Below, piece after piece: positions 1-18,720 of a stretch of 21,410 bases of DNA. Origin of the DNA: a virus; IMG/VR virus record IMGVR_UViG_3300045988_119030, positions 1 through 21,410 of that record. The stretch is one strand, 5' to 3'. The position numbers were made by a program, and so were the translations under genes. The notes under the pieces are model-generated. The model saw nothing but the letters and a program-made list of their open reading frames with translations. It was not told the origin of the DNA and made no database searches. The stretch's first letter is position 1. Each line of letters opens with the position of its first letter.

Positions 1-30
1 TTTAATTTTCCCCTTTCATTTGATACGTTA

Positions 31-59
31 AGTATAGCAGAATAAAAGGCTTTTGTCAA
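31..59 (-). promoter_or_regulatory. sigma-A type promoter TTGACA-N17-TGcTATACT. Drives a leftward gene whose start lies beyond the left edge of the window.
   Basis: Minus strand reads gggcTTGACAaaagccttttattcTGcTATACT, followed by RBS GAAAGGGGA at the window edge. The -35 sits in a small hairpin GGCTT/AAGCC. Confidence 0.55.
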
Positions 60-64
60 GCCCT

Positions 65-538
65 TTATTCAAGATTTTTGCTTTCCGCGACAAAATATTT
101 TGCTTCATACTGATTGGCGATAGCCTTGACTTTTGCGCTTTCCTTTTGGGTCGCGCAGTAAAAATTGAAAAGCGTATGCTTATCGCTCAATTCAATGTAA
201 GAATGTGGAACGTCATGCAAATCAAAATCAATGGTGTTAGTGTATTTTGTCGGGACGGTAAGCTCGACTTTCCATAATTTATCTTTGCGGGCTTTCTCTT
301 CAATCCATTTGACAAGGTAAACGCCTATGAAATTACAAACGGCAGTAATAGCCATTTTTAACCAAATAGGCATACCGTCCGCGGAAGTCAGCACAATCAC
401 ATAGGAATAAAAACCATAAGTGATAGCGTTGATAAGAGACGCGCTAACTTTTCCGCCGTTGACAGTCAAAATGCTTTTGATAGTTGACAGAATCACATTC
501 ACCGCCGTGCAAAGCGCGAACAGAAGAATTGTATTCAT
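65..538 (-). CDS. early membrane protein. N-terminal ~3 TM helices; the ORF-track start at 547 is GTG and the ATG at 538 is the likelier start
   Basis: Intact ORF. RBS AGGAAAGGGTGA 9 nt upstream of the ATG. Hydrophobic N-terminal segments. Own promoter at 568-596. Confidence 0.6.
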   Translation of the reverse strand: MNTILLFALCTAVNVILSTIKSILTVNGGKVSASLINAITYGFYSYVIVLTSADGMPIWLKMAITAVCNFIGVYLVKWIEEKARKDKLWKVELTVPTKYTNTIDFDLHDVPHSYIELSDKHTLFNFYCATQKESAKVKAIANQYEAKYFVAESKNLE

Positions 539-567
539 TATTATCACCCTTTCCTTTTTCTATTATA

Positions 568-596
568 ATAATATCATATTATAATAGAAATGTCAA
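568..596 (-). promoter_or_regulatory. promoter TTGACA-N17-TGaTATTAT for gene 65-538
   Basis: Minus strand reads ctctctaTTGACAtttctattataatatgaTATTAT. AT-rich UP-like region upstream. Confidence 0.5.
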
Positions 597-762
597 TAGA
601 GAGTTTTTAATTTACTCTTTTAATTTTTCTAATAGGTCATCAGCACATTCATAGCTGATGCTTCTGCGGCCGCACTCATTGGACAAAGGACAACAAGCGC
701 AGTCGTTAAAGGTTTCCGTCCAAGCGCGCAACCACTCAATTAAACATAAAACATTAACTCTT

Positions 763-1107
763 TCACCCATTATTATCATTCTCCTTTACTCGGACAAAAA
801 AGACCTTGTTATAGATTTTCGTTGCTTTGGGGTCAATCCAGAAATACACATTACCGCATACTCGATAGATTTTACAAGTTTCTTCACTAACCTTTTTGAC
901 TTCTTCAAATTTCTCTGGCGTGGTGGGGTGGAAAACCGTCAGTTTGAGGAATATGCAATAGAAAGCCAAAGGAACGAAGCCGATAATCATAGCAATCCAT
1001 GCGAGAACATCAGTTAAAGTGTTTTCCCAATCACACCACTCATCGGTGATTGTAGCGAACGCAATACCCACGCAGAACGCGAGAATCAACCAATACCATG
1101 CCACCAT
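763..1107 (-). CDS. early small membrane protein (2 predicted TM helices, 114 aa)
   Basis: ORF with strong RBS AAAGGGGGAAT-N6-ATG. Hydrophobic stretches. Preferred over the overlapping plus ORF 658-1017 because of the RBS and same-strand operon context. Confidence 0.6.
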   Translation of the reverse strand: MVAWYWLILAFCVGIAFATITDEWCDWENTLTDVLAWIAMIIGFVPLAFYCIFLKLTVFHPTTPEKFEEVKKVSEETCKIYRVCGNVYFWIDPKATKIYNKVFFVRVKENDNNG

Positions 1108-1137
1108 TATTTTATTCCCCCTTTATTTGTTGTATAC

Positions 1138-1166
1138 ATATTACCACATTATAGGATTTTTGTCTA
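1138..1166 (-). promoter_or_regulatory. proximal promoter TAGACA-N17-TGgTAATAT for 763-1107
   Basis: Minus strand reads aaTAGACAaaaatcctataatgtggTAATAT. Confidence 0.4.
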
Positions 1167-1226
1167 TTGGTATTTTACACAAAAATTCGTGCGAAAATTT
1201 GTTGAATCTACCTCTTGACAAAAAAC

Positions 1227-1255
1227 TCGGCGCGCCACAATCGTCCGCGCGCCGA
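1227..1255 (-). promoter_or_regulatory. GC-rich hairpin (TCGGCGCGC-N11-GCGCGCCGA) with a minus-strand U-tract, sitting between tandem promoters in the leader of 763-1107. Terminator or attenuator-like.
   Basis: aaaaaacTCGGCGCGCcacaatcgtccGCGCGCCGAcaatttt. Same AAAACTCGGCGCG lead-in as hairpin 6073-6097. Confidence 0.45.
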
Positions 1256-1257
1256 CA

Positions 1258-1286
1258 ATTTTATCACATTCAAGGAACTTTGTCAA
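1258..1286 (-). promoter_or_regulatory. promoter TTGACA-N17-TAAAAT (distal promoter for 763-1107). Its start site falls at the base of GC hairpin 1227-1255.
   Basis: Minus strand reads cactaTTGACAaagttccttgaatgtgaTAAAAT. Confidence 0.45.
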
Positions 1287-1299
1287 TAGTGAAAGTAAA

Positions 1300-1326
1300 C
1301 AAAAAAAATCACCCAATTTGGGTGAT
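1300..1326 (-). terminator. rho-independent terminator after 1334-1507
   Basis: Stem ATCACCCAA/TTGGGTGAT, then T8 on the minus strand. Confidence 0.65.
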
Positions 1327-1333
1327 TTTTCAT

Positions 1334-1507
1334 TTAGTTTTCTACGGCTTCGAGGTCGACGAGGATGGGAACGAGCTTGTCTTCAAGAAGCGAAACACGT
1401 TCAAGCATTTCGTCCATTTCATCAGGGGAAAAATGCTTCTGAATACCATAGCGCGCCATCGCGCAAACTTTTACAACAACCTCGCTGAGCTTTTCCTTAT
1501 TTTCCAT
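1334..1507 (-). CDS. hypothetical small acidic protein. The ATG at 1507 has RBS GGAGAT-N7; the ORF-track start at 1522 is also possible.
   Basis: ORF plus RBS. The terminator at 1300-1326 follows immediately downstream. Confidence 0.5.
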   Translation of the reverse strand: MENKEKLSEVVVKVCAMARYGIQKHFSPDEMDEMLERVSLLEDKLVPILVDLEAVEN

Positions 1508-1618
1508 TTTTCTTATCTCCATTCAATTTATTTTTTGGAAAGGGTGGCGGTTGTTTCAGGCACAACCGCCAAAGCCATAGGAAAGGGGGAGAAAAACACG
1601 AACAAAAGTTCGGTTTTG

Positions 1619-1858
1619 TCAAGGGATAATCAGTTCTGCGTCATAGACAGGCCGAACCATGCAGGGCGAGCCAAAGCAGTCGAGATTGTAAGTGTCCAAA
1701 TTGAGAGCGTTCCATTCTTCTGCGCCGGTATCTTCATCAACCACAGTCGCGATTTTGATGTAATAGACGTTTCCAGAAGCGGGGTCTTGAAAAATCATAC
1801 CCTCGGGAAGGTCTTCAAATGCAACCATTTTGTTGCTATGCTTAACAGTAATTTTCAT
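1619..1858 (-). CDS. hypothetical protein (~79 aa). The track start at 1867 is GTG; the ATG at 1858 has RBS AAAGGGTGA.
   Basis: ORF. The TGA stop of upstream gene 1864-2217 lies inside this RBS (translational coupling). Confidence 0.55.
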   Translation of the reverse strand: MKITVKHSNKMVAFEDLPEGMIFQDPASGNVYYIKIATVVDEDTGAEEWNALNLDTYNLDCFGSPCMVRPVYDAELIIP

Positions 1859-1863
1859 TTCGT

Positions 1864-2217
1864 TCACCCTTTATAATAGTATTTGTAAGCCCATTCGATA
1901 ATTTCATGGCTTGTGGTAGTCCATTCTTCTTTGGGACTATCGAACTTTTCCGCATACTTTTTGATGTAGTTATTATACTCCATGCGTGCGGTGTCGTATG
2001 CTCCAATAGCCACAATTAAAGCGTGCTTCGCTTCTTCGGCATCAGAGACGGCTTTCTTGCGGTCGGGGCAGTCAGGATAGAGGTTAATCACCCCTACGCG
2101 CGTAATGACTTGCCTTGTCTTTTCATAAAGGCGGTCGCGCGTTTCCCATACTTCATAAAGCTCATCGTCCGCGCGTTTTTCATATGGGTTGAAAGGCTTC
2201 TTTTTCTTACCGAACAT
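1864..2217 (-). CDS. hypothetical protein (~117 aa, starting MFGKKKK...). The long N-terminal extension in the ORF track (to 2469) is probably not translated.
   Basis: RBS AAAGGAG-N10-ATG at 2217. The ATG overlaps the TAA stop of upstream gene 2207-2545 (ATGTTCGGTAA). Confidence 0.5.
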   Translation of the reverse strand: MFGKKKKPFNPYEKRADDELYEVWETRDRLYEKTRQVITRVGVINLYPDCPDRKKAVSDAEEAKHALIVAIGAYDTARMEYNNYIKKYAEKFDSPKEEWTTTSHEIIEWAYKYYYKG

Positions 2218-2545
2218 TTTTCTTTTTCTCCTTTTCTTGCTTATTCCACATTCTATCAAAGAACGCATTTGCGAGGACACGCTTGTAAAGGTTGTCAGGC
2301 ATGGGGCGCTCGCCGTGCTTGTTTCTCCATATCGCGGTGATTTTATCAATATCCGCGATATAGGCTGTAATGAGTGTGCCATCGGAAGCGCTACGAACGA
2401 GAAGAACACCTGTTGTAGTGATAGTGTAGAGAATATCGTCCTCAACGCTGTCGATATATGGTTCGCCAATTCCTACATTATCGTAGATGAAGAGCAGGCG
2501 GTCAATGCGGTCTTGCGTGGCATGTTTTGACATTTTGATAAGCAT
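2207..2545 (-). CDS. hypothetical protein (~112 aa, starting MLIKMSKH...)
   Basis: RBS AAAGAGGT-N7-ATG at 2545. Promoter at 2583-2611 immediately upstream. Confidence 0.55.
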   Translation of the reverse strand: MLIKMSKHATQDRIDRLLFIYDNVGIGEPYIDSVEDDILYTITTTGVLLVRSASDGTLITAYIADIDKITAIWRNKHGERPMPDNLYKRVLANAFFDRMWNKQEKEKKKNVR

Positions 2546-2582
2546 TTGTTTTACCTCTTTCTTTTCCTCTTGGATTGATTGT

Positions 2583-2611
2583 ATTATACCATATGGGGAG
2601 GGGCTTGTCAA
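2583..2611 (-). promoter_or_regulatory. promoter TTGACA-N17-TGgTATAAT for 2207-2545. The -35 lies at the centre of palindrome GGGGCTTGTCAAGCCCC (2600-2616).
   Basis: Minus strand reads aggggcTTGACAagcccctccccatatggTATAAT. Confidence 0.6.
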
Positions 2612-2617
2612 GCCCCT

Positions 2618-2767
2618 TTAATACAATTGTTCCCCATCGTGGTAGCGCTCATATTCCGCTTCAAGGAAGTCGAGAATAGTTTCAAAGTCGTCTGCGTCTG
2701 CGGGGTCGGCAAAGACCTTTTCAAAGACTTCGTTAGTGTGCCAATTGTGAACTCGAACAATATCCAT
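2618..2767 (-). CDS. small acidic protein, 49 aa (MDIVRVHNWHTNEVFEKVFADPADADDFETILDFLEAEYERYHDGEQLY). Not in the ORF track because under 60 aa.
   Basis: RBS AAGAAAGAGGTAAG-N-ATG. Sits between promoter 2798-2826 and the terminator/promoter palindrome at 2600-2616. Confidence 0.5.
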   Translation of the reverse strand: MDIVRVHNWHTNEVFEKVFADPADADDFETILDFLEAEYERYHDGEQLY

Positions 2768-2797
2768 TTTACTTACCTCTTTCTTGATTGTATATGT

Positions 2798-2826
2798 ATT
2801 ATATCATGCGAAAGGGCTTTTGTCAA
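2798..2826 (-). promoter_or_regulatory. promoter TTGACA-N17-TATAAT for small gene 2618-2767. The -35 is inside hairpin AAGGGCTT/AAGCCCTT (2813-2833).
   Basis: Minus strand reads aaagggcTTGACAaaagccctttcgcatgaTATAAT. Confidence 0.6.
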
Positions 2827-2844
2827 GCCCTTTTTCTTATTTTT

Positions 2845-3200
2845 TTATTCTTTTTCTCGAATGGAATAATAAACCTTATTCCCTCGCGGTCTGCGTTTGA
2901 GTTTATGGTCGAGGTATAACTGCATACAATACCAAGTGAATTTGCCGTTGGCATACTCATAGCCATACTTTTTGAATGCCATAAACTGCATTTCAGTCGG
3001 CGTGATAGGTCTGCCCGCCTCATTCAGCAGTTCAAAGACGAGTTTAATCATCTGCTGTTTTTTCCATTCGCGTTCCTCGCGGTCGGCTTTTAAGTCTCTT
3101 TCATACTTGTCGCAAGCGTGTTCCGCGATACTCAGATCAATGGGCGAGAGAGCGCCGACGCGATGGCCTTTTTCAAAACTTCATAAATATCCTTATTCAT
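2845..3200 (-). CDS. hypothetical protein with an apparent -1 frameshift at an A5 run (plus-strand T5 at 3169-3173). The upstream frame gives MNKDIYEVLKK..., the downstream frame continues GHRVGALSPIDL...MIKLVFELL...SIREKE (~118 aa if joined).
   Basis: RBS AAAGGAAAGGGG-N7-ATG at 3200 and promoter at 3231-3259 serve the 5' frame. The long 3' frame has no start or RBS of its own. The two frames join cleanly at G_AAA_AAG. Confidence 0.45.
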
Positions 3201-3230
3201 TGTAGTTCCCCTTTCCTTTACTATACCTGT

Positions 3231-3259
3231 ATTATATCATCTACTTCTGGATTTGTCAA
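3231..3259 (-). promoter_or_regulatory. promoter TTGACA-N17-TATAAT for 2845-3200
   Basis: Minus strand reads aaaagcccTTGACAaatccagaagtagatgaTATAAT. Preceded by terminator 3273-3297. Confidence 0.6.
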
Positions 3260-3272
3260 GGGCTTTTTGGAA

Positions 3273-3297
3273 AAAGAGGGAAAAATTTTCCCTCTTT
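3273..3297 (-). terminator. rho-independent terminator after 3300-3572
   Basis: Stem AGAGGGAAAA/TTTTCCCTCT, then T5. Confidence 0.6.
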
Positions 3298-3299
3298 AT

Positions 3300-3572
3300 T
3301 TATCCCCAATAGACCGAAAGAACGTTGTCAATGTAGCTGGCTTTATAACCATAATTCTGCATGATATCTTTGCAAGCCTGCCTGACCTTCTTGTCATTTA
3401 ATGAAGCAAGATTACACTCGTAAAGTGTTTCGCCCGTTCCTGCCACTCGCTCAATTTCTGGCATGATGTGGTCTTCGATGAACGCCCGCGCGAGGGCATT
3501 ATTTTTAGCTTGAATTTCTTTGCGAACTTCTTCGGCTTTGCGCGTCATTTCATAAGCATATTTAATTTCCAT
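3300..3572 (-). CDS. hypothetical protein (90 aa)
   Basis: ORF. RBS AAAGGAAAGGGAGAT. Promoter at 3605-3633 embedded in a terminator palindrome. Confidence 0.6.
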   Translation of the reverse strand: MEIKYAYEMTRKAEEVRKEIQAKNNALARAFIEDHIMPEIERVAGTGETLYECNLASLNDKKVRQACKDIMQNYGYKASYIDNVLSVYWG

Positions 3573-3604
3573 GTTGTTATCTCCCTTTCCTTTATTGTAT
3601 CTTT

Positions 3605-3633
3605 ATTATAGCATAGAGGGCTTGTTTTGTCAA
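3605..3633 (-). promoter_or_regulatory. promoter TTGACA-N17-TGcTATAAT for 3300-3572. The -35 is inside hairpin AGAGGGCTTG/CAAGCCCTCT (3617-3642).
   Basis: Minus strand reads agagggcTTGACAaaacaagccctctatgcTATAAT. Confidence 0.6.
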
Positions 3634-3651
3634 GCCCTCTATTTAATTTTT

Positions 3652-3960
3652 TTAGCAGTAGGCCAGATTCCCGCGCGCCCAGCCATATACGCTGATTTGA
3701 TTGCACGCCTTGCCGATTTCAAGCGCCTGCTTCTTGGTCTGCACCCTCTTGGACTTGTCAACATAATAAATGCCGTTCGCAAGCCACACACCGCAGTTTC
3801 CGCCGAAGTCCTTAACCGCGTTGATAGCTTCGCGGGCGGTCTTACATTCAACGCCGTTGGTAGCGACCTGCCAGCCGGACTTGTAGTTGACTTTCTTGCC
3901 ATATTTGAGGGTCATGCCGTCGTTTTCAACGAGCTTACGAATAGAACGAATGTTAATCAT
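3652..3960 (-). CDS. hypothetical protein (~102 aa, starting MINIRSIRKL...). The ORF-track N-terminal extension to 4122 is probably 5' leader.
   Basis: RBS AAAGGGAT-N7-ATG at 3960. Two promoters lie upstream in the leader, at 4012-4040 and 4132-4160. Confidence 0.5.
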   Translation of the reverse strand: MINIRSIRKLVENDGMTLKYGKKVNYKSGWQVATNGVECKTAREAINAVKDFGGNCGVWLANGIYYVDKSKRVQTKKQALEIGKACNQISVYGWARGNLAYC

Positions 3961-4011
3961 GTTGTTATCCCTTTCCGGTTTGGTAGGTTTTCCTTCCCTT
4001 ACTGTGATTAT

Positions 4012-4040
4012 AGTATAGCACCGATTCGGGATTCTGTCTA
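4012..4040 (-). promoter_or_regulatory. proximal promoter TAGACA-N17-TGcTATACT for 3652-3960
   Basis: Minus strand reads aaTAGACAgaatcccgaatcggTGcTATACT. Confidence 0.45.
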
Positions 4041-4101
4041 TTGACATTATGCACAAACTTTCGCCATAAAAATTGTTGAACTTGCCTATTGACACAAAAT
4101 T

Positions 4102-4128
4102 CCGGCCGTGCCTGGCGTGCACGGCCGG
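4102..4128 (-). promoter_or_regulatory. GC-rich hairpin (CCGGCCGTGC-N7-GCACGGCCGG) between tandem promoters in the leader of 3652-3960
   Basis: Perfect 10-bp stem. Sits directly after the -10 of promoter 4132-4160. Confidence 0.45.
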
Positions 4129-4131
4129 CCG

Positions 4132-4160
4132 ATTATATCATAAAGTTTTGAAATTGTCAA
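4132..4160 (-). promoter_or_regulatory. distal promoter TTGACA-N17-TgaTATAAT for 3652-3960. GC hairpin 4102-4128 sits immediately downstream.
   Basis: Minus strand reads gcctaTTGACAatttcaaaactttatgaTATAAT. Preceded by terminator AAAAATCTCCCCAAAAATGGGGAGATTTTTTT (4168-4199). Confidence 0.5.
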
Positions 4161-4167
4161 TAGGCAA

Positions 4168-4199
4168 AATATACAAAAAAATCTCCCCATTTTTGGGGA
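4168..4199 (-). terminator. rho-independent terminator after 4225-4473
   Basis: AAAAATCTCCCCAAAAATGGGGAGATTTTTTT. Confidence 0.6.
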
Positions 4200-4224
4200 G
4201 ATTTTTAATTCAAAAAATTTAATT

Positions 4225-4473
4225 TTAGCCATCAACACAAATAATGAGAACGTCATCTTTGGCTTTCAAACCGCTGACCGGCAGTCCCAGCACCCATTCT
4301 TCACTTGCGCCCAAAACATCACCATTCAGAGTCATGCGACCTTTGCGGTCTTTGAGATAGCGACCGCAAGTGTTTTCATTTATCACTTCAATGCCGTTCC
4401 CCTCATAGAACATCAGCGCGCCCTTTACCAGACCAATCACATTTTTAACCATGCCCAAAGTCATTTTTGTCAA
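4225..4473 (-). CDS. hypothetical small beta-rich protein (82 aa). By eye it weakly resembles EutN/CcmL-family barrel proteins (…GASEEWVLGLPVSGLKA…). Unverified.
   Basis: ORF. RBS GAAAGAAG. Promoter at 4514-4542. Terminator at 4564-4597 upstream. Confidence 0.55.
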   Translation of the reverse strand: MTKMTLGMVKNVIGLVKGALMFYEGNGIEVINENTCGRYLKDRKGRMTLNGDVLGASEEWVLGLPVSGLKAKDDVLIICVDG

Positions 4474-4513
4474 CTTCTTTCGTCTTTAATATCGTTCCTC
4501 TTGGAACAATTAT

Positions 4514-4542
4514 AGTATAGCACAAGGTATAACAAAAATCAA
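4514..4542 (-). promoter_or_regulatory. promoter TTGATT-N17-TGcTATACT for 4225-4473
   Basis: Minus strand reads cctaTTGATTtttgttataccttgTGcTATACT. Confidence 0.55.
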
Positions 4543-4563
4543 TAGGTAAAATGTATAAAAAAC

Positions 4564-4597
4564 TCGGCAGGATTTTGTGTATCCTGCCGAGTTTTTT
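4564..4597. terminator. bidirectional intrinsic terminator (A-run, stem CTCGGCAGG/CCTGCCGAG, T7). Terminates 4597-4791 on the minus strand.
   Basis: aaaaaaCTCGGCAGGattttgtgtatCCTGCCGAGttttttt. Confidence 0.65.
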
Positions 4598-4791
4598 TAC
4601 TCTTCCCAACTCTCGATGACTTCACCGGTCATTGCGTCGATAATGTCAACCGAGAGGACGTTGTCCGCGTCCATAAACTTCTGTCCGAGGGCATATGCAT
4701 TTTCCTGTCCCGCGACAGACACTTCATAGCGATAGCGATTATTATCGCCAGCTTTGTAATTGTAGTAGTTAACAGAAACAATAAATAACAT
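4597..4791 (-). CDS. hypothetical protein (64 aa)
   Basis: ORF. RBS AAAGGGGAT-N7-ATG. Promoter at 4822-4849 (TTGACA-N16-TGgTATAAT). Confidence 0.6.
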   Translation of the reverse strand: MLFIVSVNYYNYKAGDNNRYRYEVSVAGQENAYALGQKFMDADNVLSVDIIDAMTGEVIESWEE

Positions 4792-4821
4792 TTGGTTTAT
4801 CCCCTTTCTTTTTATACTCTT

Positions 4822-4849
4822 ATTATACCATAGTTTCGGGATTTGTCAA
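4822..4849 (-). promoter_or_regulatory. promoter TTGACA-N16-TGgTATAAT for 4597-4791
   Basis: Minus strand reads cctaTTGACAaatcccgaaactaTGgTATAAT. Confidence 0.6.
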
Positions 4850-4877
4850 TAGGTTTTTTGAAAAAAGTTTGAAAAAA

Positions 4878-4901
4878 GATTGGAGCATTACTGCTCCAAT
4901 C
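4878..4901 (-). terminator. terminator after 4888-5163. The stop codon is in the loop.
   Basis: GATTGGAGCA-gtaa-TGCTCCAATC, then T6 on the minus strand. Confidence 0.6.
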
Positions 4902-5163
4902 TATTCACCGGATAGTCGATTGGTTTAACCTCAATCGGCGAGTTAGCCCAGTCATAGGAAACGCGGAAAAATTCAGCACAGTGGTAACTAAAATCAGCCC
5001 AGCCAAAAGTCGCAAGATGCGATTTCCAATCTCTGAAATATGGTTCTAATTCTTGCGTGATATAGAGCGTTTCTTCGAGCCGGTCTAAAAGTTTTTCATT
5101 CTTCGCCACATGGAAAACTGCGGTGGTCTTAGTCTCAGCGTCGGTGATGATGTATGTTTTCAT
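4888..5163 (-). CDS. hypothetical protein (~91 aa, starting MKTYIITDAE...)
   Basis: RBS AAAAGGAGC-N7-ATG at 5163. Promoter at 5194-5221. The last codons plus TAA lie in the terminator hairpin at 4878-4901. Confidence 0.55.
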   Translation of the reverse strand: MKTYIITDAETKTTAVFHVAKNEKLLDRLEETLYITQELEPYFRDWKSHLATFGWADFSYHCAEFFRVSYDWANSPIEVKPIDYPVNRLEQ

Positions 5164-5193
5164 TTGAAAAGCTCCTTTTCTTTTGATACTACC

Positions 5194-5221
5194 ATTATAG
5201 CACACTTTTGGAATTTGTCAA
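5194..5221 (-). promoter_or_regulatory. promoter TTGACA-N16-TGcTATAAT for 4888-5163
   Basis: Minus strand reads ccctaTTGACAaattccaaaagtgTGcTATAAT. Confidence 0.6.
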
Positions 5222-5239
5222 TAGGGAAAATGAAAAAAA

Positions 5240-5261
5240 AGAGAAGTTTTTCAACTTCTCT
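5240..5261 (-). terminator. terminator after small peptide gene 5251-5355
   Basis: AGAGAAGTT-gaaa-AACTTCTCT flanked by an A8 / T8 run. Confidence 0.6.
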
Positions 5262-5355
5262 TTTTCAGTTTCTTTTCTGCCCATTCAATGAGTGCGCCCG
5301 CGCCGATTGTCCCAAAGTAAATGAAAAGTAAAACTAAACCGTCATGCGTGCTCAT
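5251..5355 (-). CDS. small hydrophobic peptide, 34 aa (MSTHDGLVLLFIYFGTIGAGALIEWAEKKLKKRS). Single TM helix plus basic tail. Not in the ORF track.
   Basis: RBS GGAGG-N8-ATG. The ATG begins 1 nt after the TAA of upstream gene 5356-5484 (TAAATG). Its TGA stop lies inside the terminator at 5240-5261. Confidence 0.5.
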   Translation of the reverse strand: MSTHDGLVLLFIYFGTIGAGALIEWAEKKLKKRS

Positions 5356-5484
5356 TTAATATTCCTCCACATACTCTGTAAAAACAAGCTCCCAGTCAGG
5401 GCCAAGATCCGGAGCTTTGCAGTATCGCGACTGTCGAATGTCATGCTCATTAGTGATTTTGTTGATAAACTCGAATTCATACAT
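5356..5484 (-). CDS. hypothetical small protein (~42 aa, starting MYEFEFINK...)
   Basis: RBS AAAAGGAGAT-N8-ATG at 5484. Promoter at 5517-5545. Confidence 0.45.
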   Translation of the reverse strand: MYEFEFINKITNEHDIRQSRYCKAPDLGPDWELVFTEYVEEY

Positions 5485-5516
5485 TTTTATTATCTCCTTT
5501 TTTTTACTGTACCAAT

Positions 5517-5545
5517 AGTATAGCAGATAATAGGGCATTTGTCAA
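5517..5545 (-). promoter_or_regulatory. promoter TTGACA-N17-TGcTATACT for 5356-5484 and 5251-5355
   Basis: Minus strand reads ggtaTTGACAaatgccctattatcTGcTATACT. Confidence 0.55.
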
Positions 5546-5562
5546 TACCATTTATAAAAAAA

Positions 5563-5588
5563 ATGTACGAGGTTTAATCCTCGTACAT
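5563..5588 (-). terminator. terminator after 5574-5870. The stop codon is in the loop.
   Basis: ATGTACGAGG-attaaa-CCTCGTACAT, then T8 on the minus strand. Confidence 0.6.
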
Positions 5589-5870
5589 TTCCATTAACGA
5601 TTTGATTTTTTCGATTGTATTTTCAATTTCTTCTACATAGTCGGTTTGCTCCTCACTTGCGCGCATGGCCTGTTCATATGCGTCATAGATAGTTTCGCAC
5701 TGTTCACGGGTGTAGTCTTCTTCTGGAGCGTGTTCCATGGTGACGACTGCTGTCCAAGCGAGCGTTTCTTTATCGTCAAGGTCATCGGCTTTTTCCGCGG
5801 CAGTGGCAAGCTCATGTTCGAGGCGCGTCTTTTCGAGCGAGAGGGTCTTGAGAAAATCCTTATTAGTCAT
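5574..5870 (-). CDS. hypothetical acidic protein (~98 aa, starting MTNKDFLK...)
   Basis: RBS AAAAGGAGAT-N8-ATG at 5870. Promoter at 5903-5930. Stop codon in the loop of terminator 5563-5588. Confidence 0.55.
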   Translation of the reverse strand: MTNKDFLKTLSLEKTRLEHELATAAEKADDLDDKETLAWTAVVTMEHAPEEDYTREQCETIYDAYEQAMRASEEQTDYVEEIENTIEKIKSLMEMYED

Positions 5871-5902
5871 TGTGGTGTATCTCCTTTTCATTTGATGCCT
5901 TT

Positions 5903-5930
5903 ATTATACCACTTCTGGACTGAATGTCAA
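5903..5930 (-). promoter_or_regulatory. promoter TTGACA-N16-TGgTATAAT for 5574-5870
   Basis: Minus strand reads cctaTTGACAttcagtccagaagTGgTATAAT. The iteron cluster lies immediately upstream. Confidence 0.6.
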
Positions 5931-6022
5931 TAGGTTTTTGAAAAAAATATTTATTCATCAGGGCTGTATAAATATTCATGTATAAATATTCATTTTCGGG
6001 TGTATAAAGGCGACTGGCATAA

Positions 6023-6053
6023 TGCACAAAATGGTTTCAAAATTTTTGTGCAA
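6023..6053. promoter_or_regulatory. palindrome TGCACAAAA-N13-TTTTGTGCA. Candidate operator.
   Basis: aaTGCACAAAAtggtttcaaaattTTTTGTGCAat. The same half-site recurs at 7694-7739 and 4050-4057. Confidence 0.5.
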
Positions 6054-6072
6054 TATAACTATTGCAAAACTC

Positions 6073-6097
6073 GGCGCGCTGCGGCCCACAGCGCGCC
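6073..6097 (-). promoter_or_regulatory. GC-rich hairpin (GGCGCGCTG-N7-CAGCGCGCC) with a short minus-strand U-tract, embedded in the iteron/palindrome region
   Basis: aaaactcGGCGCGCTGcggcccaCAGCGCGCCggcc. Confidence 0.4.
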
Positions 6098-6179
6098 GGC
6101 CAAATGCATATGTATGATTATTCATGTATATTCATTGCATATTCATTGTATATTTATTCATACATAATATGCGAAAATA

Positions 6180-6204
6180 GAGAGAGACTTAATAAGCCTC
6201 TCTC
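6180..6204 (-). terminator. hairpin terminator overlapping the stop of 6189-6554
   Basis: GAGAGAG-N11-CTCTCTC, followed on the minus strand by TATTTTCGC. Modest U-tract. Confidence 0.4.
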
Positions 6205-6554
6205 CATACCTTGATTATTTCATCATCTGCTATATCATCTGTGTCATTGTCGTTTATCCACAAAAGCAGAAAATCATTATCATCAATGGTCATATTCTCA
6301 ACTTCCCATTGGTTGCCGCGTTCGTCCAGTAGCGTGATGGTGTTACCATTTCGGGAAGCGACCTCTGCACCGATAAAGCGTATGCTTCCTCTCTCTGTAC
6401 CAGCGCCACACCATTCATCTAATGCGGTGAGGTCATAGGACTGCGGCGCTTCCTCACAGGCTTCCGCGGTTGTGTGGTCGTGGAATGGGCCGAAGAAAGA
6501 CACGGAGAGAATGATGGCAATGGCCATGGTGATGATTTTGGAAACGTTTTTCAT
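6189..6554 (-). CDS. predicted secreted protein (121 aa). The N-terminus looks like a signal peptide (MKNVSKIITMAIAIILSVSFFG…AEA); mature part acidic.
   Basis: ORF. RBS AAGAAAGAGGTAAAAC-ATG. Terminator hairpin at 6180-6204 overlaps the stop. Confidence 0.55.
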   Translation of the reverse strand: MKNVSKIITMAIAIILSVSFFGPFHDHTTAEACEEAPQSYDLTALDEWCGAGTERGSIRFIGAEVASRNGNTITLLDERGNQWEVENMTIDDNDFLLLWINDNDTDDIADDEIIKVWREAY

Positions 6555-6576
6555 TTTGTTTTACCTCTTTCTTACT

Positions 6577-6720
6577 TTATAGGTTAGTAGCGATAGTGAC
6601 AACAGCAATAAGCATGAGCGTGCTTGAGACAGCTTTACCTACATTCTTGCTATCTATGGCATAGACAAAATTATATGCGCTTATAGCAGTAAGCACAATG
6701 ATAGCGGCGATGATAGACAT
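6577..6720 (-). CDS. small membrane protein, 47 aa, 2 hydrophobic segments (MSIIAAIIVLTAISAYNFVYAIDSKNVGKAVSSTLMLIAVVTIATNL). Not in the ORF track.
   Basis: RBS AGAGGGGAG-N8-ATG. Lies between 6751-7224 and 6189-6554 on the same strand. Confidence 0.45.
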   Translation of the reverse strand: MSIIAAIIVLTAISAYNFVYAIDSKNVGKAVSSTLMLIAVVTIATNL

Positions 6721-6750
6721 GGCATATGCTCCCCTCTTTGAGCGAGTGGG

Positions 6751-7224
6751 TTAAACCCACTCGCTGAATAGCTCGCTGATGAAGTCATCGTGGACATCAT
6801 CAGGCAGTTGGTCGATGGTACACTCATAGGTGCTTACCACGGTAAGCGATGAGCCATTTTCAAGGTTCTCGCGCTCAAACTTATCCCGTTCACCAGATGA
6901 AAGAAAAAATGCGGTATAATCGTAAGTGTCTTCTCCATCATTGATGGAATAATCCACCACCTTAAAGCGCATCTTGTTCCAGAGGTTCGCTATGATGGAA
7001 AGATCCATAGCCAGCTCTTCCTCGCGGCGGACAGCTTCGAGAGACGCCTTATACTTGCGCCATGCGGCTACCGTAAAGTCTCTTATGCCGCACCCGATAA
7101 GACAATGGTATTCCTCTAAGTCTTTGATAACCAGTTTGCGTCCCTCGCGCACCATATCCCAAGCATCTTCTGCCATTGCGTTGATGGTGACAGCATCATA
7201 TTTATGCAAGCCCTGAATTTTCAT
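6751..7224 (-). CDS. hypothetical protein (157 aa)
   Basis: ORF. RBS GGAAGGG. The TAA stop sits in the loop of hairpin GCGAGTGGGTT/AACCCACTCGC (6741-6766). Confidence 0.55.
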   Translation of the reverse strand: MKIQGLHKYDAVTINAMAEDAWDMVREGRKLVIKDLEEYHCLIGCGIRDFTVAAWRKYKASLEAVRREEELAMDLSIIANLWNKMRFKVVDYSINDGEDTYDYTAFFLSSGERDKFERENLENGSSLTVVSTYECTIDQLPDDVHDDFISELFSEWV

Positions 7225-7305
7225 TGTATAGCCCTTCCGCGCTTTTTGCGCTATCGTGTTATATGTAGGTATGTTCCCCCATGTGGGGAGTGAGGGCTTG
7301 CGCCC

Positions 7306-7599
7306 TCACTTTGCAATCTTTGTAGTAACGGAAGCCGCACGCGGCGCGCCAGTCTTCTTGTACTTATCAAAGCACTCGGCGTAGAGTTTCGGCGCTTTGT
7401 TGCGGAACATCACCGTGTCGAGCGTTTCAGTAGCCTTGCCACCCTTGCCAACAATAACAGTAAACTTATTGTAAGTAAAGGTAACGCTTTCGCCGTTAGC
7501 TTCCTCGCGGGCTTCTGCCTTGAGCAATTCTAACTGTTCCTTGAGCGCGTCTATCTGCGCGGAAATCTCGCACATTTTTTTAATTTTATTGTTCGTCAT
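7306..7599 (-). CDS. hypothetical protein (97 aa). First gene of the leftward module.
   Basis: ORF. RBS GAGGAT. The TGA stop lies within terminator stem GTGAGGGC/GCCCTCAC (7291-7312). Confidence 0.55.
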   Translation of the reverse strand: MTNNKIKKMCEISAQIDALKEQLELLKAEAREEANGESVTFTYNKFTVIVGKGGKATETLDTVMFRNKAPKLYAECFDKYKKTGAPRAASVTTKIAK

Positions 7600-7693
7600 T
7601 TTTGAATCCTCATTTCATGCAATTTACTGTTCGGTGTTCCGCCGTTCAGCATGGTTACATGGTAGCAGATTCAGCCACGGAATACAATTGACA

Positions 7694-7739
7694 GATTGCA
7701 CAAAGATTTGTTTTGTACGGGGCGGGTTTTTGTGCAATC
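7694..7739. promoter_or_regulatory. palindrome GATTGCACAAA-N24-TTTGTGCAATC. Second copy of the candidate operator.
   Basis: Perfect 11-bp arms. Lies in the 400-bp noncoding region upstream of the first leftward gene. Confidence 0.5.
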
Positions 7740-7777
7740 TACCGCCGGGCGGCACCCTTGCATCATACCTTTGCATT

Positions 7778-7801
7778 TTTATTCACTCAAAAATGAATAA
7801 A
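7778..7801. repeat. inverted repeat TTTATTCA-N8-TGAATAAA (the iteron motif in palindromic arrangement)
   Basis: ttTTTATTCActcaaaaaTGAATAAAac. Confidence 0.45.
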
Positions 7802-7895
7802 ACCTGCATAGAGGGGGGTGTATTTCGGGAAAAATAAATTTTTATTTATCGTTTTTTCTTTTGCCTGGTCAAAACACAATCTAAATCAATTTTCA

Positions 7896-7935
7896 ATTTC
7901 AAATCACGAAATAATTTAAAATTTCAAATTACGAC
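7896..7935. repeat. imperfect direct repeat ATTTCAAAT(C/T)ACGA(A/C) x2, spaced 25 bp
   Basis: ATTTCAAATCACGAA at 7896-7910. ATTTCAAATTACGAC at 7921-7935. Confidence 0.4.
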
Positions 7936-8025
7936 TTCTTTTTTCTACCTCTTTTAGGCTTCTCACCCCACATAAAAGTGTATAATCCAGAAGTAGCAGA
8001 ATATGTAGCTTTCTGCTGATACTTT

Positions 8026-8421
8026 TTAGCAGCTGCTTTCAAGGGGTTGAGGGGTTTCCGCATTTAATTTTTCCTCCATATATTCGATTAATTTATCTTT
8101 ATATTTACAACTATCAATATATCTATTAATAGTATCTATATCATATTTTTCCATTAAGTGCTCTAATACATATTTGTATTTATTTAACTGATATTCTTCT
8201 TGTTCTTCTTTAGTGCTTAATTGGGCCTTTTCCGCGTCTGATAAAGGTTTATAAGTAATTGTTCTTGACCCATTATCCTTTTGCTCAATACGTATTGTTT
8301 TAAATAATTTCCAATCTCTTACAAAAGGATCTTTATCTCTTGTGGCGTTAAAATATTCTTGTTCTAATCTAAATATTACTGCGTCTATCCCTCTTACTTC
8401 AAAAGGCTGGTTCCGCCTCAT
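8026..8421 (-). CDS. hypothetical protein, AT-rich (~131 aa from MRRNQPFEV...). The track start at 8454 is also possible.
   Basis: ORF. Internal RBS GGGAGG-N9-ATG at 8421. Confidence 0.45.
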   Translation of the reverse strand: MRRNQPFEVRGIDAVIFRLEQEYFNATRDKDPFVRDWKLFKTIRIEQKDNGSRTITYKPLSDAEKAQLSTKEEQEEYQLNKYKYVLEHLMEKYDIDTINRYIDSCKYKDKLIEYMEEKLNAETPQPLESSC

Positions 8422-8638
8422 TTTCAATATCCTCCCATTCAAATGTTCCATCATCTAATTCATATACAAATGCCTGTTTATAGAATGATGAAACAATTCC
8501 ATCATTTGCGATTCCTTTTGGACTATTTTTCGCATCATGGAAACAATTATAAACAATTAGTCCTTGCGTTTCATATCGCGAAAAATCTACTGCCCTTCCC
8601 TCAAAATCATAATTATAAAATATGTTTAACAATAGCAT
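8399..8638 (-). CDS. hypothetical protein (79 aa), AT-rich. Overlaps the start of 8026-8421.
   Basis: ORF. A leftward promoter candidate at 8821-8849 gives a long leader. Confidence 0.4.
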   Translation of the reverse strand: MLLLNIFYNYDFEGRAVDFSRYETQGLIVYNCFHDAKNSPKGIANDGIVSSFYKQAFVYELDDGTFEWEDIENEAEPAF

Positions 8639-8677
8639 ACACTCATATTGTGCGATTGGCCATTTATTTAATTCTTT

Positions 8678-8705
8678 TTGCTAATTTGCCATTTTTTGGT
8701 ATAAT
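8678..8705 (+). promoter_or_regulatory. candidate rightward promoter TTGCTA-N16-TGgTATAAT upstream of a 10-codon ORF (8746-8778) with RBS AAAGGAG
   Basis: Plus strand reads tttTTGCTAatttgccatttttTGgTATAAT. Confidence 0.3.
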
Positions 8706-8820
8706 ACCCAAAAGGCTTTTCTATATAACCATAAAAAAAGGAGTGATGCTACTAATGCACAACTCAATAATACAATAAAAATAATTTCCATAAATACTCT
8801 TTTTCTTTTTTCTTATAATA

Positions 8821-8849
8821 ATAATAAAATAAAAAATAAGAAATGTCAA
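8821..8849 (-). promoter_or_regulatory. candidate leftward promoter TTGACA-N17-TATTAT for 8399-8638 / 8026-8421. Divergent from the rightward promoter.
   Basis: Minus strand reads cgacTTGACAtttcttattttttatttTATTAT. Long AT-rich leader. Confidence 0.35.
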
Positions 8850-8931
8850 GTCGTGGAGCGTAATTGGGCAAAAGTTATTTGTTTTGTTAAAAAAATTTTT
8901 AAATATAAAAAGAAAAAATTTTAAATGAAAC

Positions 8932-8960
8932 TTGACAAAAAAAATTTTTTCGAGTATAAT
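8932..8960 (+). promoter_or_regulatory. consensus promoter TTGACA-N17-TATAAT for the first rightward gene (8985-10040)
   Basis: Plus strand reads aaacTTGACAaaaaaaattttttcgagTATAAT. GGAGG RBS and ATG 25 nt downstream. A-rich upstream. Confidence 0.6.
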
Positions 8961-8984
8961 ATAAATATAGACTGGAGGTAAAAA

Positions 8985-10040
8985 ATGATAAAACTTGATT
9001 ATTCTTTACAAACTCCAGAAGAAAGAAATCAATTAGTCGAACAAATTTTGGCTGATAATCCAGATCCGCCTGAAAAGTATTTAGAAATTTTAGCAGACTA
9101 TTTGGTTCTTTGTATGGAGAAACAAGAAAAAAAGGAGAAAAAATTATTAACTGATAATCGTATGGCTACAGTTAATAAGCGTGAGACTTCTTTTGAAGGT
9201 CTTGTTTCCCAACTCGAAAATGGCGAAGATGGAATTTATAATTTAATTACAGATAATAGAAATACAATATTTCAACCACATATTACAATTACAAAAAAAG
9301 ATTTAGAAGAGATACCAAGTTTAAATTAGTTAAGAGAAGCCATTAATGTTTGGGAGGCTAAATTAAAAGTAACAGAAGGAAAAGATGCTTTTGTTATTAA
9401 AAAGGCTCTTATTGAAATGCGTAAAGATTAGTATGTTATGAAAAATGCTTATCGTCGTCCAATAGTGCCTACAAAATTAACCAGATCAAAGTCTTATATT
9501 CCATTAGATGATAAAACATTTATTTTTGATGATGATGGTTTTCCCATTCCTGATGGAATTAGTTTATTAAGACCTGAAATATGTTCTGCGGTTTTATGTA
9601 ATTATTCCCGACTAAAACAAGATAGTTGGGGCGAATATGATAAAGATTTATGGTATTTAATGGAGGATTTTGATAAGCTTTGTGATAAAGCCTTAGCTAA
9701 TTATCCTCTTTATGATAGAATCGTTGAATATAAAATTGATGGTTTACAAAATATTGACATTCAAGAGAAAATACAAATGGAATTTGGTATTAAACATAGT
9801 CTTGAATATATTTCAAGTTTATGGCGTAATAAAATTCCAAAATTAATTGCTTCGACTGCGGAAGATGAATATTTAGATAATTATTATTTAAATGTTGAAA
9901 AAGGTAAATATAAAAAATGTAGTCGTTGTGGTAAAATAAAATTAGCTCATAATAAATATTTTAGTAAAAATAAAACAAGTAAAGATGGCTTTTATAGTAT
10001 TTGTAAAAGTTGTCGAAATTCTAAGGCCAAAAAATCTTAA
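8985..10040 (+). CDS. zinc-ribbon protein (352 aa if TAG is read through). Two in-frame TAGs at 9327-9329 and 9432-9434. C-terminal CxxC…CxxC motif. Function unknown.
   Basis: Single frame 8985-10040, interrupted only by TAG and ending in TAA. Consensus promoter at 8932-8960. RBS GGAGG-N6-ATG. Confidence 0.6.
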
Positions 10041-10089
10041 TGTTGTCCTTTTGTTTATAATAAATAGTTGAAAGGAGAATATTTTATTT

Positions 10090-13016: not shown

Positions 13017-13028
13017 GGAGGGTGGAAA

Positions 13029-13385: not shown

Positions 13386-13398
13386 AGGAGGTGGAACT

Positions 13399-15048: not shown

Positions 15049-15057
15049 GGAGGATTT

Positions 15058-16641: not shown

Positions 16642-16658
16642 TAAGGAGGACATACTAA

Positions 16659-17576: not shown

Positions 17577-17593
17577 GAAAGGAGAAAAGGATA

Positions 17594-18700: not shown

Positions 18701-18720
18701 TTTAATATAAATTATTCCAT

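Follow-up and report, generated by a model that had tools for sequence, protein, structure and literature searches.

Hairpins over the -35 hexamer in the small-gene array of a gut phage: putative PeSL-like terminator/promoter cassettes

Results

The DNA analysed here, called the window in the following, is the stretch of 21,410 nt from position 1 to 21,410 of IMG/VR record IMGVR_UViG_3300045988_119030. It belongs to a lineage of large uncultured gut phages with TAG-recoded late genes. Portal, terminase and capsid are closest to those of phAss-1 and Enterococcus phages, and the host is probably a member of the Bacillota. Positions 65-7599 hold an array of about 20-21 small genes (33-157 aa) on the minus strand, a hyperplastic and presumably early region with cassettes between the genes. 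PHROGs searches gave no family match for 17 of 19 array proteins. About 15 promoter cassettes are found within 6 kb, concentrated among the small orphan genes. A phage sigma-like gene occupies 8985-10040. The plus strand has no credible genes between 1 and 8600, and no promoter scoring above 10/12. There was no match of positions 1-9000 to GenBank phages by megablast and none of the whole window to Rfam at gathering thresholds; a tRNA scan of the window found none.

Four composite sites

An earlier note on this DNA had described four hairpins enclosing TTGACA. All four are present, on the minus strand, which carries all genes and promoters concerned, a point on which the note was silent. Its positions were slightly off: the string given for site B is really at 2812-2832 and that for site C at 3615-3640. 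At site A (2583-2617) the hairpin AGGGGCUU-gac-AAGCCCCU (2599-2617) covers the -35 at 2606-2611, and an extended -10 (TGgTATAAT, 2583-2588) completes a promoter of 12/12 matches; the upstream stop TAA is at 2618-2620, the downstream gene at 2207-2545, and the stem is followed by CCCCAUAU, which is no U tract. Site B (2798-2836) has an A tract and then the hairpin AAAGGGCUU-gacaa-AAGCCCUUU (2811-2833), with the -35 at 2821-2826 and the -10 at 2798-2803 (12/12), between the upstream stop at 2845-2847 and the downstream gene at 2618-2767; its GC core is followed by UUU only. Site C (3605-3642) is a 12-bp hairpin, AUAGAGGGCUUG-acaaaa-CAAGCCCUCUAU (3613-3642), again without a U tract, with the -35 at 3628-3633 and the -10 at 3605-3610 (12/12), the upstream stop at 3652-3654 and the downstream gene at 3300-3572. 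Site D (31-70) has the hairpin GAAUAAAGGGCUU-gacaa-AAGCCUUUUAUUC, with a core at 48-62 that extends to 40-70 with one G.U pair, a -35 at 54-59, a -10 at 31-36 (11/12) and the U tract UUUUAUU; its downstream gene starts past the window edge.

All four sites have a 17-nt spacer, as had been claimed, but the -10 of site D is TATACT and not TATAAT. The hairpins had also been placed right after the upstream stop. This holds in so far as TAA lies 0-10 nt ahead of the stem, but at site D the stop (TAA, 65-67) is inside the 5' arm. A tracts precede the composite stems on the minus strand, and the AT-rich tract 5' of the -35 contains the stop of the upstream gene. AT-rich tracts upstream of the -35 also belong to strong promoters. 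At sites A-C a GGAG-type ribosome-binding site and an ATG follow 27-34 nt past the -10. Among the composites of the window a U tract is present at site D and, weakly, at site B; it is practically absent from sites A and C, where the 8 nt after the stem contain 1-3 U, as compared to U5-8 behind each of seven ordinary terminators in the window. The T runs that the earlier note possibly saw at sites A and C lie on the plus strand side.

Ordinary cassettes, in which terminator and promoter follow each other, are also on the minus strand. They are found at 3231-3297 (terminator AAAGAGGGAAAauuUUUCCCUCUUU plus U5 at about 3273-3297; promoter 3231-3259, 12/12), 4132-4206 (terminator 4177-4206, U7; promoter 4132-4160, 12/12), 4514-4597 (terminator 4557-4597 with a 17-bp stem and U6; promoter TTGATT-17-TATACT at 4514-4542), 4822-4902 (terminator 4877-4902, TAA in the loop, U6; promoter 4822-4849, 12/12), 5194-5266 (terminator 5235-5266, TGA in the loop, U8; promoter 5194-5221, 12/12) and 5517-5588 (terminator 5563-5588, TAA in the loop, U8; promoter 5517-5545, 11/12). 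Accordingly, the stops reported inside terminator hairpins at 4888, 5574 and 5251 indeed lie in true terminators with U6-8. At 6751 and 7306 the stop is within a hairpin as well, but there is neither a U tract nor a promoter following. Ordinary minus-strand terminators have upstream A tracts, too. Intergenic regions are 72-79 nt long at composite sites versus 87-132 nt at ordinary cassettes.

Non-randomness and folding

Perfect TTGACA-N16/17-TATAAT promoters occur nine times in the window, as compared to 0.03 expected by chance, and TG precedes the -10 in all nine. The arrangement GGGCTTGAC-N0-8-AAGCCC occurs three times (0.00 in shuffles). In the phage group, 13.7% of 306 unique promoters have a perfect stem of at least 7 pairs over the -35; the same test gave 0.3-2.7% in three controls, with 0.6% for shuffled flanks. 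A chance origin of the composites was rejected by three controls.

RNA folding energies are -12.7 (A), -13.9 (B), -20.4 (C) and -16.9 kcal/mol (D). The z-scores of sites B, C and D range from -5.6 to -6.8 (B -5.6, C -6.8), that of site A is -1.6. Site D is more stable on the sense than on the antisense strand (-16.9 versus -11.9 kcal/mol). The stems of the phage group are perfect palindromes that show no difference in stability between sense and antisense, and therefore a sense-strand RNA hairpin is not proven for this group. Internal stem mismatches in the group are of the G.U type in 17 and of the A.C type in 10 cases, counts that are redundant and do not differ significantly.

Related loci

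The comparison set consisted of 14 related IMG/VR phage loci, so that counts across them are non-independent. Hairpins in these loci are located either over the -35 or 25-40 nt upstream of it, the latter being ordinary terminators with U7-8. The distance of the hairpin centre to the -35 is bimodal (-40 to -25 or 0 to +9) with almost nothing in between. The two types exclude each other: an upstream terminator is found at 0 of 78 promoters with an embedded hairpin but at 123 of the 282 others (Fisher 5e-17; loci non-independent). Embedded hairpins of the phage group are followed by a mean of 3.4 U per 8 nt, separate terminators by 5.5.

Pairing is conserved while the sequence is not. Pairing is maintained in 24 distinct stems that differ in their bases, with loops of 3-8 nt, and among relatives the 3' arm shifts its position against the -35. 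In the family of site C, 93.5% of cells are paired and four pairs are changed on both sides; the covariation score is 0.220 versus 0.095 in shuffles (0/500) and collapses when the partner is slid. Copies in relatives such as AAGCCCTTTTTCTgcTATACT have the full layout of a canonical bidirectional terminator, and AAGCCCTTTTTCTGCTATACT is a U-rich homologue.

A second role, overlooked in the earlier note, became apparent from the relatives: genes are shuffled by recombination at the cassettes. Of 28 distinct homology breakpoints, 16 fall between genes, versus 25% expected (p 2.5e-4; related loci non-independent), and breakpoints recur at 2606-2622, 2831-2835, 3206-3209 and 4877-4889. Four kinds of chimeric junctions are seen among relatives. 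Loci L005 and L013 combine the 5' arm from site C with the 3' arm from site A, leaving in L005 a stem of 6 pairs, down from 14 and 8; L014 joins site C with site B; L001 has the hairpin of site B with the -10 and leader of site A; and at the L008 junction the -35 is lost. The crossover lies within GGGCTTGACAA, within AAAAGCCCTT or between hairpin and -10. Such variation is expected for recombination by short homology, and site-specific recombination of the integron attC type is therefore not favoured.

The same design in other phages

IMG/VR was scanned with the bare hairpin motif as query. Of the TTGACA-containing matches, 50/81 have a -10 of at least 5/6 at 16-18 nt, where we estimate that about 1-2% would be expected. 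There were 46 unique composites; in 23 of them the 8 nt after the GC core contain 5 U or more, and at 39 a co-directional upstream ORF ends at the element. Stems (47 composites counted here) lengthen mainly by A-U pairs, with an A tract paired to a U tract, and many copies place a U5-8 tract in the promoter spacer.

The cultured Enterococcus phage vB_EfaS_Ef2.2 has six elements located 16-20 nt past the CDS end, all six with U5-6 within the spacer. Their stems contain G.U pairs and fold with -13.8 to -17.3 kcal/mol in sense but -7.1 to -10.6 kcal/mol in antisense; owing to these pairs the hairpin is stable on the sense strand only. Enterococcus Saphexavirus (e.g. MK721189.1) has the same order as the window, a CDS stop about 19 nt ahead of TTGACA in a hairpin, U5-6 in the spacer and then the -10, but its elements have G.U-bearing, weaker stems and are unannotated intergenic sequence. 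Elements of this type in Saphexavirus or other Enterococcus phages are not described in the literature searched, and the phAss-1 paper is silent on promoters and terminators. The compact layout is genuine and common among phages of Gram-positive bacteria.

Discussion

The elements of the window are of a kind already known, which the earlier note had overlooked: they are of the type of the promoter-early stem-loops (PeSLs) that Arbiol, Comeau, Kutateladze, Adamia and Krisch reported in 2010 in the T4-type phages phi1/RB49 (PMC2839356), here in a phage unrelated to the T4 type. PeSLs fall into five positional subclasses, one of which overlaps the -35; they include AT-rich tracts 5' of the -35, a PeSL stem-loop roughly equalled rrnB T1 in termination when assayed with lacZ (PMC2839356), and recombination between PeSLs has been demonstrated (PMC2839356, PMC4122927). 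Excised mini-circles are formed in such recombination. Shared with phi1/RB49 are the near-perfect TTGACA-N17-TATAAT, the upstream AT-rich tract with the stop codon of the previous gene, the GC-rich stem-loop in or beside the promoter, the Shine-Dalgarno sequence and start codon at the 3' end, the numerous copies among small orphan genes, and the location of indel and replacement breakpoints at the elements, where recombination leaves chimeras. There are also differences. The phage studied here has a probable Bacillota host and TAG-recoded late genes. Its hairpins are only upstream of or over the -35, whereas in phi1 they are commonest between -35 and -10 or over the -10. Its stems combine GGGC/GCCC with A and U tracts, whereas those of phi1/RB49 are polyG/polyC.

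Comparable PeSL/PmSL composite motifs, tied to the shuffling of variable genes, were described in PST/T4 and nt-1/KVP40 by Comeau, Arbiol and Krisch in 2014 (PMC4122927). Stems in nt-1 (A3-4G3-loop-C3T3-4) resemble the AAAGGGC...GCCCTTT stems seen here, and stem-loops just upstream of the promoter in PST/T4 and nt-1/KVP40 are like the ordinary cassettes of the window; their promoters, unlike those here, deviate from the consensus (PMC4122927). With canonical bidirectional intrinsic (Rho-independent) terminators the window elements share A tract, GC-rich stem, short loop and, where there is one, the U tract, but here the -35 hexamer is encoded by loop and 5' arm, and the U tract is at the same time the promoter spacer; no such tract is present at sites A and C. 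The morons of lambdoid phages, reportedly described by Juhala et al. in 2000 and also discussed in PMC2839356, are likewise single genes with their own promoter and terminator, but these do not overlap, and no conserved repeated flanking cassette mediates exchange.

With a probability of roughly 0.72, we interpret the elements as PeSL-like composite terminator/promoter cassettes that separate single-gene early units in a plastic early arm; promoter activity, termination and early timing are inferred. Host sigma-A/sigma-70 RNA polymerase would initiate at each near-consensus promoter (TTGACA, 17 nt, TGnTATAAT), and the RNA from the upstream gene would form a GC-rich hairpin, with the 4-9 nt ahead of the -35 plus TT(G) as 5' arm, (G)ACA(A..) as loop and the 3' arm within the promoter spacer. 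Where the remaining spacer is U-rich, this would be a canonical intrinsic terminator, with release of the polymerase about at the -10; where it is not, as at sites A and C, attenuation only is predicted. The overlap of signals would save about 15-20 nt per cassette and insulate it, and the repeated core (GGGCTTGACAA ... TATAAT plus leader) may serve as short homology by which recombination deletes, swaps or inserts gene cassettes. The dual use proposed in the earlier note, by which one element forms the 3' hairpin of the upstream transcript and supplies the -35 for the following promoter, gains comparative evidence from the exclusivity, the stem covariation, the U5-8 copies and the PeSL precedent. 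Its weak part is sites A (2611) and C (3633), which, having essentially no U tract, would at best be attenuators.

The missing U tract at sites A and C, the lower U content of embedded hairpins compared to separate terminators, and the operon-internal hairpins without U tract at 6751 and 7306 would also suit hairpins that do not terminate but act in read-through RNA as 3'-end stabilisers or RNase III-type sites, on polycistronic transcripts supplemented by the cassettes' own promoters. We consider this unlikely, since embedded hairpins and ordinary terminators never occur at the same promoter, a canonical U5-8 follows the stem in half of the copies from unrelated phages and in each of the six from the Enterococcus phage, and a PeSL stem-loop terminated in vivo (PMC2839356). 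Termination directed mainly at antisense (plus strand) transcription, or in both directions, would account for the T runs on the plus strand side, for the A tracts ahead of the stems on the minus strand and for the result of a scan that called sites B, C and D plus strand terminators, with B and C looking better there. The plus strand of 1-8600 with its lack of credible genes and of promoters above 10/12 speaks against this reading, to which we attach a very small probability; upstream A tracts are a general feature, being shared by ordinary minus-strand terminators, and AT-rich tracts upstream of the -35 are found in PeSLs (PMC2839356) as well as in strong promoters.

That the palindromes are DNA operators, through which a dimeric phage or host regulator represses or activates a subset of early promoters, appears highly improbable, although they are perfect, lack strand asymmetry in the phage group and cover the -35, the classic position of a repressor, and although the phage has the sigma-like gene. 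The half-sites are 3-8 nt apart, the 3' arm has no fixed register to the -35, the arms are free to differ as long as pairing is kept, stem extensions are A/U tracts, and some pairs in the Enterococcus-phage copies are G.U, a mismatch at the DNA level; all this indicates a folded single strand rather than a fixed protein site. A protein operator with fixed half-site sequence and spacing was thus rejected on the variable spacing. Nearly negligible is the probability that pairing has no function and is a by-product of repeated cassette recombination and the self-complementary TTGACAA core. TTG-A-CAA is by itself a 7-nt palindrome and new arm combinations do arise by recombination, but the chimeras shorten stems instead of building them (14 and 8 pairs to 6 in L005), shuffled flanks gave 0.6% versus the observed 13.7%, compensatory changes are present and the same design occurs in unrelated phages.

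If the preferred reading of composite cassettes is correct, the PeSL concept of a portable cassette, which brings its own promoter, insulation and homology for gene shuffling, would reach beyond the T4-type phages with their Gram-negative hosts and also cover an unrelated gut lineage and cultured Enterococcus phages. It is tempting, if rather doubtful, to go further and regard terminator-in-promoter cassettes as a general module, overlooked so far, that is shared by phages of Gram-positive bacteria, from TAG-recoded gut phages and Enterococcus Saphexavirus to many IMG/VR contigs, and that combines polymerase recycling with exchange at a shared core. The overlap may have a mechanistic role besides saving space. 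Polymerase freed at a U tract that is also the spacer of the next promoter would then be handed straight to that promoter for re-initiation, which would even out expression along the orphan-gene array, while the shared core would drive exchange of cassettes between phages. For annotation, the elements would delimit transcription units and point to likely joints of recombination in arrays of orphan genes, a frequent place to look for counter-defence genes. They could also provide very compact terminator-plus-promoter parts of 35-45 nt for engineering, and the Enterococcus phages offer a tractable system for a terminator whose U tract is the spacer of a promoter.

Hairpins over the -35 hexamer of early promoters

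The early genes lie on the minus strand, so the finding has to be read wholly on that strand. Perfect TTGACA-N16/17-TATAAT promoters occur nine times in the window (0.03 expected), eight of them on the minus strand within 2583-5930 and one on the plus strand at 8932. TG precedes the -10 in all of them and, including near-consensus ones, there are about 15 promoters within 6 kb, each with a small gene behind it. At four promoters on the minus strand the -35 hexamer lies within a hairpin: site A (2583..2617, first base of the -35 at 2611; AGGGGCUU-gac-AAGCCCCU, -12.7 kcal/mol), site B (2798..2836, 2826; AAAGGGCUU-gacaa-AAGCCCUUU, -13.9 kcal/mol), site C (3605..3642, 3633; AUAGAGGGCUUG-acaaaa-CAAGCCCUCUAU, -20.4 kcal/mol) and site D (31..70, 59; GAAUAAAGGGCUU-gacaa-AAGCCUUUUAUUC, -16.9 kcal/mol). 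The motif GGGCTTGAC-N0-8-AAGCCC is found three times versus 0.00 in shuffles. The four TTGACA hairpins that an earlier note had picked out by reading the sequence are real and non-random, although their positions were off by 0-3 nt; the TATAAT assigned to all four is present at A, B and C, but the -10 at D is TATACT. As that note also had it, the hairpins directly follow the upstream gene: the stem starts 0-10 nt past the TAA, which at site D is inside the stem.

At the remaining promoters of the array (5545, 5221, 4849, 4542, 4160, 3259 and 1286) a hairpin with U5-8 stands apart from the promoter, 14-30 nt upstream of the -35. No separate terminator besides the embedded hairpin was found at sites A-D, and the intergenic regions at A-C are 72-79 nt long compared to 87-132 nt in these ordinary cassettes. 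The note's claim of stop codons within terminator hairpins is right for 4888, 5251 and 5574, where the stop lies in the loop of a U6-8 terminator. The hairpins at 6745-6775 and 7270-7320 (minus strand) hold the stops of genes 6751-7224 and 7306-7599, but they lack a U tract and are not followed by a promoter. The four genes from 7599 to 6189 look like one operon, in contrast to the cassette array to their left.

On the sense strand, the embedded stems are followed by a single U at A, U3 at B, a broken tract (UAUGCUAU) at C and UUUUAUU at D. That one element serves as 3′ hairpin of the upstream transcript and as -35 of the next promoter, as the note proposed, is the best interpretation, but for the window this dual role is a prediction and only partly supported, since a U tract is missing from two of the four hairpins.

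Exclusivity and selected pairing in relatives

Fourteen IMG/VR loci (contigs of 85-197 kb) were retrieved with the 112-aa protein encoded downstream of site A (91-99% identity in that protein); together with the window they gave 306 unique promoters with at least 11/12 matches. Perfect stems of at least seven pairs over the -35 are present in 13.7% of these. The three controls gave 2.7% for random positions, 0.6% after the flanks were shuffled and 0.3% for TTGACA hexamers that lack a -10. When the best hairpin of each promoter is taken, the distribution of centres is bimodal, with one group at -40..-25 and the other at 0..+9. Embedded and upstream hairpins are mutually exclusive (0/78 vs 123/282, Fisher 5e-17, although the contexts are related and p overstates their independence). 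This is the strongest internal argument that the embedded hairpin takes over the job of the terminator.

The pairing itself is under selection. Stems reach 17 bp, and some span the proximal upstream region and the whole spacer up to the TAT of the -10. In all 24 distinct stems the 5′ arm ends in the TT(G) of the -35; bases -1 to -11 differ with complementarity kept, and the gap between the arms ranges from 3 to 8 nt. Ten distinct sequences make up the site C family, in which 93.5% of cells are paired and four pairs show two-sided changes (U-A/C-G; A-U/U-A/G-C; A-U/G-C; G-C/G.U/A-U). Its covariation score is 0.220 vs 0.095 in shuffles (0/500), and pairing drops to 27-50% once the partners are slid. 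In this phage group the stems are true palindromes, equally stable as sense and as antisense, and internal mismatches are of the wobble type in 17 and of the A.C type in 10 cases, a modest excess in a redundant set. A protein operator is disfavoured by the variable loop length and the free arm sequence, which point to a folded single strand.

The same design in other phages

A scan of IMG/VR for the bare hairpin motif gave at least 133 matches in at least 120 stretches. TTGACA is present in 81 of the matches listed, and 50 of these 81 have a -10 of 5/6 or better at 16-18 nt (perfect in 30); by chance, such a -10 would presumably be met in about 1-2% (our own estimate, 3 x 19/4096). Among the 46 unique composites in the matches listed, 39 have an upstream co-directional frame of at least 40 codons whose end is no more than 45 nt away or is the TGA contained in TTGACA, 32 are followed by an ORF that has a ribosome-binding site, and 23 have at least five U in the 8 nt past the GC core (e.g. 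GGGGCTTGACAAAGCCCCTTTTTTATGATATAAT). Stems of the listed matches grow past the pattern-imposed core by 2.6 pairs in composites (47 counted) vs 0.87 in matches without a -10; the extra pairs in composites are mostly A-U, that is, an A tract paired with the U tract. The best co-directional frame stops at the TGA of TTGACA in 11 of the 46, all on other IMG/VR contigs. In locus L001 (about 12740-13250; also in L100 and other loci) a 166-aa ORF, by eye HAD-like with a DxDGT motif, ends at this TGA, so that the end of the coding sequence, the 5′ arm of the hairpin and the -35 overlap.

A 45-nt consensus query matched 371 GenBank phage records, 124 of them Enterococcus phages, with several matches per genome in unannotated spacers. 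The cultured Saphexavirus phage vB_EfaS_Ef2.2 (MK721189.1, L135) has terminator-in-promoter elements of the window design, unannotated, at locus positions 17237, 20007, 23645, 26231, 28838 and 31937. These six lie 16-20 nt past the end of a CDS; the distance to the following CDS is about 53-131 nt, in most cases about 60. Each has U5-6 within the promoter spacer and 1-3 G.U pairs, with sense energies of -13.8 to -17.3 vs antisense energies of -7.1 to -10.6 kcal/mol. Judged by sequence, the hairpin in this phage is clearly predicted to act as a terminator in the sense-strand RNA, its stem and loop containing the -35. Embedded cassettes are a clean and widespread example of signal overlap for which a cultured test system exists.

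Relation to PeSLs and recombination

Promoter-early stem-loop cassettes (PeSLs) were described in the coliphages phi1 and RB49 by Arbiol et al. 2010 (PMC2839356). They consist of an AT-rich upstream tract that holds the stop codon of the previous gene, a near-perfect TTGACA-N17-TATAAT promoter, and a Shine-Dalgarno sequence with ATG at the end; the stem-loop has five possible positions, overlap with the -35 explicitly among them (PMC2839356). The promoters are very strong, termination by a stem-loop was about as good as that of rrnB T1 in a lacZ assay, and PeSL-PeSL recombination leads to deletions, replacements and mini-circles (PMC2839356). Comeau et al. 2014 reported PeSL-type elements with A3-4G3-loop-C3T3-4 stems in T4/PST and KVP40/nt-1 (PMC4122927). 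The window elements have every sequence-level defining feature of PeSLs, with their activity predicted, and we regard them as PeSL-type elements, an already described kind and no new principle. In contrast to the PeSL-bearing T4-type phages, the window phage belongs to an unrelated lineage with TAG-recoded late genes and a probable Bacillota host; its group uses only two stem positions, and many copies of the window design place the U tract of a canonical terminator in the promoter spacer.

Compared to its relatives, the window is a homology mosaic. Breakpoints are intergenic in 16 of 28 distinct cases vs 25% expected (p 2.5e-4) and recur at 2606-2622 (7 loci), 2831-2835 (6), 3206-3209 (7) and 4877-4889 (9). 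According to the junction sequences, crossovers fall within cassettes. L005 and L013 join the 5′ arm of site C (GCATATAGGGCTTGAC) to the 3′ arm of site A (AAGCCCCTCCCC), by which about 1 kb with three genes is deleted and a 6-bp stem remains; in L014 the junction links sites C and B; L001 combines a B-type hairpin with the -10 and leader of site A; and in L008 the region upstream of the promoter at 3259 is fused to a B-type 3′ half at AAAAGCCCTT, with loss of the -35. Since the crossover points differ among junctions, we favour cassette exchange by short-homology recombination over a site-specific mechanism. Neither the role in recombination nor the prior description figured in the earlier note. 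Compared with L001 and L011, which have an intact ORF of 119 aa, the gene behind the promoter at 3231-3259 (2845-3205, minus) is frameshifted by a 2-nt gap; either it is a pseudogene or the assembly is in error.

Window architecture and further elements

The window has two arms. Minus-strand genes from 1 to about 8850 form the early arm, with about 21 small ORFs (33-157 aa) and GGAG-type ribosome-binding sites; AT-rich plus-strand genes follow from 8985 onward. The GC content steps sharply from 38-45% (1-8000) to 28-39% (8001-21410), and the GC skew changes sign at about 9000, at the divergent promoter region 8821-8960. In-frame TAG codons number 2-9 per late-arm gene (8985-21318, plus strand; terminase, 11277-13016, eight; portal, 13486-15048, nine), except in 16659-17576, 17594-18700 and 18787-19380, which have none. 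TAG in the late-arm genes is thus a recoded sense codon, and the proteins are full-length when it is read as Gln. The stops of 23 minus-strand early genes are TAA (18), TGA (5) and TAG (0). No tRNA genes were found in the window. PHROGs matches were a terminase large subunit, a portal and a sigma-factor-like protein. A capsid-region protein is 50% identical to its counterpart in the human-gut phage phAss-1, which has TAG-recoded genes and for which a Clostridia host is predicted (PMC10607447), and 39% to that of large Enterococcus phages; the host is probably a member of the Bacillota.

The first late-arm gene (8932-10040 region, plus strand) has two TAG codons; its product of 351 aa shows a match to phrog_5767 'sigma factor' and a Cys-rich, HNH/Lar-like C-terminal portion. 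The 12/12 host-type promoter that precedes it suggests a possible cascade from host polymerase to phage sigma.

The minus strand holds three paralogous modules, each about 180 nt long, at 1110-1340, 3960-4215 and 5890-6190. Each has a terminator, a promoter P1 and a very GC-rich hairpin with U4-6 only 2-4 nt past the -10, whose stem differs in the three copies in a compensating manner. Then follow GTCAATAGG, TTTGTGCATAATG, CAATAGACA (a second promoter with a TAGACA -35), a ribosome-binding site and a gene. A search of Rfam gave no match for the element. It could encode a very small self-terminated RNA, or be a tandem promoter that is regulated. A TTGCACAAA/TTTGTGCAA inverted repeat is also present at about 7690-7740.
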